Shown: positions 43,580-43,785 of the stretch, in pieces
Numbering within the stretch: the stretch's first letter is position 1
Layout of the letters: the number at the start of each line of letters is the position of its first letter
Source of the DNA: Eledone cirrhosa
Lineage: Eukaryota
Direction of reading: 5' to 3'
Length of the DNA stretch: 64,000 nucleotides
Assembly (NCBI GenBank): GCA_964016885.1
Contig: OZ024754.1
Coordinates: forward strand, 6,324,001 to 6,388,000
The notes under the pieces: model-generated
The model's database searches: none
Told to the model about the DNA's origin: nothing
What the model saw: only the letters and a program-made list of their open reading frames with translations
Program-made: the position numbers and the translations under genes

Positions 43580-43780
43580 ACGGAGGAAATGTGGTAAGGA
43601 ACCAGGTGGACCATAACGCACCAAAGTACTCAATACTTAGGGTAGTAGAGTGGGTAATAGGAACGAGTAGGACCCCGACGGCTGAGCTCAAGCCGTTTCG
43701 ACGGCTAATTCTGGACTGAATTAGCGTCCAGAATTAGCCGTCGAAACGGCTTGAGCTCAGCCGTCGGGGTCCTACTCGTT

Positions 43781-43785
<5 letters not shown>
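43577..43785 (-). mobile_element. Family Y short (TA)n-targeted fold-back element with partial HHR (stems II/III, GAAA, GUC)
   Basis: Recurring copies at ~6185, 6580, 15525, 16475, 21015, 38980, 43577, 48365, 56415, 57190, 57438, nearly all abutting (TA)n. Several have an inverted arm. Confidence 0.8.

Follow-up and report, generated by a model that had tools for sequence, protein, structure and literature searches.

In a 64,000-nucleotide stretch of the Eledone cirrhosa genome (contig OZ024754.1, positions 6,324,001 to 6,388,000; hereafter the window), an insertion near 43.7 kb carries the 3' half of a hammerhead ribozyme and ends just before the catalytic core. This raises the question of whether the other half exists and why it is missing here. 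The original prediction held that a full-size hammerhead was reconstructable only by combining truncated copies, yet thousands of single copies each contain an intact motif, with U3-A8 as the core pair. In the reading that we prefer and judge reasonably probable, the window copies would be fragments of a Hydra-clade Penelope-like element (PLE) whose U3-A8 parent is predicted to self-cleave, the core being absent because copying ran off at an RNA start in loop II.

The insertion at 43.7 kb consists of two 60-nt arms (43657-43716 and 43726-43785), head to head, 9 nt apart and flanked on both sides by (TA)n (Table 1). Because the arms are 100% complementary, the GAAA-stem III-GUC-GGGGUC stretch at 43743-43772 on the + strand is repeated on the - strand. 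One arm has an additional tail of ~83 nt, a sequence (+21 to +103, where position 0 is the first base after the cut) that forms the beginning of the 5' UTR in full elements. The letters originally read as a stem II 5' arm at this copy are junction fold-back and not element sequence. Their GAC closes the inverted arm, and the 8 nt that follow are filler reverse complementary to bases lying 6 nt inside the other arm; the stem II 5' strand of longer copies is unlike these junction letters.

Table 1. Positions of Family Y features in the window and of the hammerhead in the parent-element locus L129
Feature	Position	Strand	Remarks
(TA)n target, left	43551..43579		
Long arm, 43.7-kb insertion	43574..43721	-	5' start in loop II, -45 to -41 from cleavage site; contains stem II 3' strand, GAAA, stem III, GUC (43679-43677) and stem I'; ends at putative distal priming site (+103)
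Tail between the two putative priming sites (+21 to +103)	43574..43656	-	
Junction filler, 8 nt	43718..43725	-	reverse complement of adjacent-arm bases
Short inverted arm (-40 to +20)	43726..43785	+	100% complementary to 43657-43716
Hammerhead 3' half	43743..43765	+	GAAA 43743-43746; GUC 43763-43765; predicted cut after 43765
Stem III of 3' half	43746-43751 with 43759-43764	+	loop 43752-43758, contains palindrome
(TA)n target, right	43783..43830		
Diverged fold-back copy	6186..6301	+	- strand 6228-6216 is antisense of GUC and stem I'
Older-subfamily single arm with tail	6571..6720	-	
Young-subfamily single arm with tail	15518..15668	-	start -40
Older-subfamily single short arm	16475..16535	-	
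Older-subfamily head-to-head pair	21014..21229		
Young-subfamily head-to-head pair	38975..39185		
Older-subfamily head-to-head pair	48346..48560		
Older-subfamily single arm	56423..56525	-	start -25
Young-subfamily head-to-head pair	57184..57359		30-nt deletion in long arm
Older-subfamily single short arm	57438..57495	-	
L129 stem I	4801-4805		core 4806-4812 = U3 U4 G5 A6 G7 A8 A9
L129 stem II	from G 4813		bulge near start; loop ~37 nt; C11.1 at 4866
L129 3' half	C17 at 4889		GAAA; 6-bp stem III around palindromic loop; stem I' 4890-4894

The family to which this insertion belongs, Family Y, occupies 11 insertion loci in the window, where a 17-mer search allowing up to 3 mismatches returned 15 matches across the 64 kb against 0.02 expected by chance. 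Most of the roughly 11 copies had been said to share one 3' half. The half is real, but the motif exactly as first written occurs at two of the 11 loci (43.7 and 57.3 kb), the 39.1-kb copy being one base off in stem I', and stem III is 6 bp long in about five of them and mostly 5 bp in the remainder. A long stem III, of 5-6 bp in the family, was correctly noted. The divergent copy proposed to supply the core does contain the expected letters at 6228-6216 (-), but these are the antisense of GUC and stem I' of a fold-back and no GAAA follows. That the copies here lack the core also holds, in all 11 loci, but the core does not appear to have decayed; it was apparently never copied into the insertions. 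An Rfam scan of the window found no hammerhead up to E 1, just miRNA matches driven by microsatellites.

We searched the whole genome (3.0 Gb, TA-rich), which contains 46,348 arms by a looser 21-mer and 11,021 exact 40-mer copies. Among the first 30 exact-40-mer loci, several copies extend further 5' and show a hammerhead of type I in contiguous sequence. Once these longer copies had revealed its 5' half, by-eye interpretations of the 5' end as HDV-like, twister, pistol or tRNA-SINE were abandoned. The full motif, from stem I to loop III, occurs in 4,351 contiguous copies (reversed control pattern, 0), roughly 9% of arms, the two search patterns differing slightly. It comprises stem I, a core of UUGA(G/U)AA, stem II with a loop of ~37 nt, GAAA, a 5-6-bp stem III and GUC; core positions follow the standard hammerhead numbering. 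The U3-A8 pair is found in 3,186 of the 4,351 full copies, and this pattern has the Watson-Crick 3-8 pair, U4, G5, A6, N7, A9, G10.1-C11.1, GAAA, A15.1-U16.1 and an NUH site. A further 944 copies have a C3.A8 mismatch (core CUGAGAA) in place of a Watson-Crick 3-8 pair. The core of the main families is thus UUGANAA or CUGAGAA, and CUGAYGA is limited to an old subfamily and a few single copies. The attribution of the 3' half to a PLE hammerhead is supported by this contiguous motif and by the parent element described below.

Structure prediction lends the motif graded support. The three-way junction with an unpaired core was the minimum-energy fold in the two subfamilies tested, with folding z-scores (-0.41 and -0.50) that are not significant. 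All three stems exceeded a probability of 0.5 in 14 of 64 distinct full motifs, and the commonest young variant reached 0.96, 0.70 and 0.74. The 3' strand of stem II repeats that of stem III and can pair with the stem III 5' strand instead, which gives a competing rival hairpin. In an alignment of 22 chosen rows, four of them old rows off by one column in stem II, 84% of cells were paired, compared with 27-48% with slid partners. Pair 3-8 was U-A in 13 rows, C-G in four, U-G in one and other in four, and one stem II pair was G-C in 11 rows and A-U in six. G5, A6, A9 and GAAA were invariant in these rows and position 7 varied (U, G, A, C). Pairs with two-sided change were not above shuffles (61/500), the covariation amounting to two or three subfamily-level events, a small number of independent changes. 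The loop III palindrome GAGCUC is kept in all three subfamilies; a palindromic loop III is the usual mark of dimer-competent motifs. The U3-A8 motif is very probably a working hammerhead, and monomeric cleavage of the predicted ribozyme, as originally proposed from the long stem III, is plausible. Rfam found no hammerhead up to E 10 in L129:4700-5050, a miss likely explained by the long loop II and the core swap.

An older subfamily is U3-A8 with a different stem II, both strands of which changed together. The oldest is canonical C3-G8; its four known copies were first found by searches requiring that core, and in a 3'-half search not selected on core (5 hits) all three long old-subfamily copies were likewise C3-G8. 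The locus L030, considered as a parent element, was rejected and is a copy of the old subfamily. In run X1, C accounted for about a quarter of the depth at position 3. With positions 3 and 8 masked and the older subfamily as root, a tree built from 40 full-length pLTR rows picked by hand placed the C3.A8 copies as a basal grade with the young U3-A8 copies nested within it (support 100/98), and a single clade of C3 rows was rejected (p-AU 0.0009). This topology implies that the 3-8 pair was lost for a period and restored one or more times, with the caveat that the change involves a C/T transition where a C run ends. The line that regained the pair has the youngest, least diverged copies. This history suggests that a working core may help spread without being needed for it, in agreement with an Anolis PLE whose hammerhead mutants insert normally in vitro (PMC11167929, available text). 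Single young-family C3-G8 copies (L095, L100, L105 and L110) lie scattered through the C3.A8 grade, likely as separate point changes.

The parent element was found in L129, where two hammerheads flank an ORF at 5080-7236 (718 aa) in a pLTR-ORF-pLTR arrangement. The ORF encodes a reverse transcriptase (YRDD at 348) followed by a C-terminal GIY-YIG domain (VIY..YIG at 591), with RWR at 37, DKT at 117, CNCPDRSIC at 572, CNLC at 670 and CKH at 698. These match the Hydra-clade features RW(K/R), DKT, CxCX5C, GIY-YIG, CxxC and CxH listed in section 11 of PMC8557442. By these ORF motifs, compared with Hydra references by eye, the predicted parent is a Hydra-clade Penelope-like element, and its protein resembles Hydra-1_Obim by eye. 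Pfam gave no match for the 718-aa protein; a relative gave a GIY-YIG match on a sub-cutoff stretch. At least 2,058 relatives scored E 1e-20 or better among 8,000 candidates. Partial pLTR tandems, an inverted 5'-truncated copy, an optional tail and insertion into (TA)n were all found. In 314 copies the sequence continues from the tail into the 5' UTR, and among these are arrays of 3-4 units of ~3.54 kb each, 99.7-99.9% identical.

Such head-to-tail arrays, of 3-4 whole units with a period of ~3.53-3.54 kb, lie at G000:C1:91476610-91487262 (L252-L255, units 99.7-99.9% identical), C1:437200348-437210966 and C2:320551593-320558706. The second unit of L129, near 7530, lacks ~430 nt of 3' UTR and keeps its ORF intact; the segment is present in L129's upstream partial copy and in other copies. 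ORFs of other Penelope-like families lie at L134:769-2085(-), L137:300-1484(-), L140:6377-7399(-) and L122:456-2597(-). From their motifs we take the first three to be Hydra-like and that of L122 to be of Penelope/Poseidon type.

To define where copies end, we surveyed 89 arms of the family in 664 kb of DNA chosen irrespective of it. Their 3' ends fall into two groups, 30 of the 89 at +18..+24 and 45 at +98..+110, with 14 elsewhere, and both sites (+20 and +103) are UAU in the RNA, facing a (TA)n target. Their 5' starts cluster at -47..-34 (55/89), with 31 further 3', a few of which are weak TA-tail hits, and three further 5'. Of 13 head-to-head pairs, ten join one tailed and one untailed arm and none has two tails. 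Arms apparently primed 83 nt apart share one template stop, and the stop is therefore independent of cDNA length. Summed contig depth in run X1, a crude measure, rises from ~0.15 to ~3 million (~20-fold) across the stop zone. Thirty copies extend past the tail. The zone is crossed by 17 of the 19 copies that continue for at least 900 nt and by no copy among the 11 shorter ones, counting four long copies from one array and two short ones from a tandem duplicate; these two behaviours point to two template classes. Copy ends show no pile-up at the cleavage site, the pattern that would have pointed to cleavage in vivo (1/89 arms at -1; 1/30 at 0). The exact last base is ambiguous, as the inverted arm supplies complementary letters. 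The 13 non-templated junction bases (9 G, 4 A) carry no clear cap signature, most G being explained by fold-back. All three subfamilies share an AGT at -41, and we take the short words at -45 and -41 to be initiator-like. In one arm of L035 and L057 the sequence breaks off in the stem II 5' strand or in the core and resumes in a more upstream part of the pLTR, likely a template switch during insertion.

Given the element, an RNA start site in loop II is, from sequence, the explanation of this stop that we find rather probable. The element protein would nick both strands of (TA)n and prime at the two UAU sites, with a transcript from an internal promoter in loop II as template. Both cDNAs would end after 60-145 nt by running off the RNA 5' end and would then be joined head to head. 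Fragments thus lack the core likely because reverse transcription ran off an RNA beginning in loop II. A second template class, lacking an end in loop II, would give rise to long and tandem copies; it would be either a multimer produced by read-through or a circle formed once the hammerhead has cut. Cleavage would help spread without being strictly required. Precedents exist for two of these steps: Penelope has a TATA-less internal promoter in its pLTR (as summarised in PMC2377424), and an Anolis PLE has two internal priming sites bounding its tail in vitro (PMC11167929, in the text available).

A more elaborate version of this scheme can be offered tentatively. An RNA starting at -41 is predicted to fold into the rival hairpin and not into a half-hammerhead. 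If the mRNA starts in loop II, its 5' half-ribozyme might thus refold and be unable to remove the cap. A whole ribozyme would then exist only at the 3' pLTR or in read-through RNA, where it would produce the end or circle that serves as template for full and tandem copies. The 41-45 nt from start to cut would correspond to an LTR R-like terminal repeat, and the short insertions, in their tens of thousands, would be fossil strong-stop cDNAs.

The strongest competitor, which we rate as possible though unlikely, is that the RNA does not start in loop II and that a structure or bound protein there halts or dislodges the reverse transcriptase shortly after priming. The ~12-nt width of the stop zone would fit such a stall, and an enzyme that has just been primed may have lower processivity than one already past the ORF, which would explain the split between long and short copies. 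The stops, however, follow the copied stem II 3' strand and lie in an AU-rich loop with weak predicted structure. Moreover, the zone is kept across three subfamilies whose loop II differs upstream of -43, and copies primed as far away as +317 and +918 stop at the same place.

Somewhat less likely still is that the motif is a decayed hammerhead kept mainly as a promoter or protein-binding sequence, with no useful cleavage. The amplification of 944 copies with a broken 3-8 pair, the frequent success of the rival hairpin, the better conservation of the -43 to -1 stretch than of the 5' half and the unimpaired in vitro insertion of Anolis hammerhead mutants (PMC11167929, available text) all suit this view. 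Yet U3-A8 copies are nested in the C3.A8 grade, so that the pair was regained, both stem II strands changed together, and G5, A6, A9 and GAAA are invariant, all of which speak for a maintained ribozyme.

We consider it improbable that splicing sets the 5' end, through a pLTR intron whose 3' splice site would be the YAG at -42..-40 or whose branch point would lie near -45. The YAG is kept in all three subfamilies, the D. virilis Penelope intron ends at the hammerhead (PMC4209133, available text), and other families in the window have donor-like and acceptor-like words near their stops. Short copies, however, usually retain the AG and the subfamily-specific base before it, none of them carries a common upstream exon, and no GT-AG joint was seen among the contigs, which show presence only.

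The first model, in which genomic copies have lost the core of a canonical CUGACGA hammerhead (stem II of 12 bp, loop of 6 nt), can be set aside almost entirely: the 3' half is real and CUGAYGA is present in one old subfamily, but both joined pieces were misread, the contiguous motif has another core, stem II 5' strand and loop, and the proposed spacing is matched by no coherent family. It had been staked on finding CUGANGA upstream of the 3' half, which is not the family core. Genome-wide, CUGANGA gave 43 heterogeneous matches 8-38 nt before the 3' half, all unrelated junction or chance matches, and 81 at 39-69 nt, mostly junction noise, against 46,348 arms.

The element can be placed among known systems. 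Hydra PLEs, as described in the available text of Craig et al. 2021 (PMC8557442), share its single ORF of RT and C-terminal GIY-YIG with RW(K/R), DKT, CxCX5C, CxxC and CxH, its (TA)n target, its inverted 5'-truncated copy, its optional tail and a type I hammerhead in the pLTR. In all 25 rows of their file S2, however, the hammerheads have CUGANGA, a loop II of ~3-10 nt and a 3-4-bp stem III closed by 1-3 nt, whereas Family Y has U3-A8 or C3.A8, a loop II of ~37 nt and a 5-6-bp stem III with a loop of 7-9 nt. The Hydra-1_oBim hammerhead in that file is a sequence unlike the Family Y motif. The parent unit is ~3.54 kb against less than 3 kb in Hydra, and the tail ~83 nt against 30-40 (PMC8557442, available text).

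The same compensatory U3-A8 swap occurs in the pLTR of Cercyon PLEs of Schistosoma mansoni (Cervera and De la Pena 2014, PMC4209133), which in the available text also share a long stem II in which a base close to the 5' end is unpaired, a short stem I and a palindromic loop III. Cercyon motifs are minimal, without a stable helix III, whereas Family Y has one of 5-6 bp, like the fungal and protist PLE motifs of the same source, one of which cleaved as a monomer. Cercyon belongs to another PLE clade and host, and Family Y shows three core states along one lineage. The natural swap is found in other hammerheads too and is described as active in vitro (PMC3088659, available text).

Poseidon PAc of Anolis carolinensis (Frangieh et al. 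2024, PMC11167929) resembles Family Y, in the text available, in its two internal priming sites bounding the tail, an AT-rich target cut on both strands and an uncleaved RNA template. Its ORF starts inside the hammerhead, whereas that of the Family Y parent starts 190 nt past the cleavage site, and the available text reports no fixed 5' stop of the kind seen in Family Y. Non-LTR retrozymes (bioRxiv 10.64898/2026.07.22.740005, available text) are likewise short, abundant, non-coding and PLE-derived, with a type I hammerhead, but they form head-to-tail tandems with a whole hammerhead per unit, in contrast to the head-to-head half hammerheads here. Retrozymes are recognised by short tandems with complete hammerheads; the tandems found in Family Y are whole 3.5-kb coding units. 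The head-to-head half-hammerhead fragments are most likely dead on arrival. In a plant retrozyme the start maps upstream of the cut, another arrangement (PMC12029980, available text).

A metagenome scan for the 3' half gave 0 matches. A literature search, with subscription papers and Repbase largely outside its scope, found no report of Family Y or of a start site within a PLE hammerhead. What appears to be new is a putative PLE hammerhead that combines a swapped core pair with an extended loop II and a stem III of monomer length, and that has a clear, fixed 5' limit inside the motif. Thousands of such motifs in this one genome escape searches based on CUGANGA or on Rfam models. The function of hammerheads in PLEs has been called unclear (PMC8557442, available text), and the family offers natural test material for that role and for the origin of pLTRs and of head-to-head copies. 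One lineage has C3-G8, U3-A8 and mismatched C3.A8 cores with a stem III long enough for a monomer assay, its young ORFs are intact, and its tens of thousands of insertions map both putative priming sites and the fixed 5' limit. If only the basic reading holds, the family is a tidy variant of a PLE hammerhead and no more.

In other hammerhead families of the window the 5' limit is likewise specific to the family, but it lies upstream of the core. In three canonical-core families, found at 38217(+), 20309(-), 40866(+) and 59840(-), the 5' ends cluster ~36, 57 and 38 nt upstream of the core. The 40866 family begins at an ATGGCG word, which presumably recalls a YY1 site. Short copies of the family at 6493(-), 6499(+) and 59119(+) begin 2-5 nt before the core, immediately after an acceptor-like CAG that is visible in the longer copies L109, L219 and L220. 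This start recalls D. virilis Penelope, whose intron ends at helix I (PMC4209133, available text). Further short TA-inserted families, at 6915(+), 19973(-), 32439(-), 32674(+), 32967(-), 33089(+) and 38659(-), carry minimal hammerheads that are complete and have the canonical CUGANGA core, and their copies are often arranged head to head. In the families seeded at 6915, 32674 and 33089, a GGTAYGTC word resembling a splice donor is kept 30-50 nt upstream of the core, close to the 5' limit. An open frame at 54929-55441(+) begins with a GKGEMKSYWL motif, which we take to recall the end of a guanylyl-cyclase domain and which may be a host exon. LINE-type ORF fragments, presumably RTE/CR1-like, lie at 41672-42433(-), 23523-23978(-), 29791-30470(-) and 62828-63643(+).
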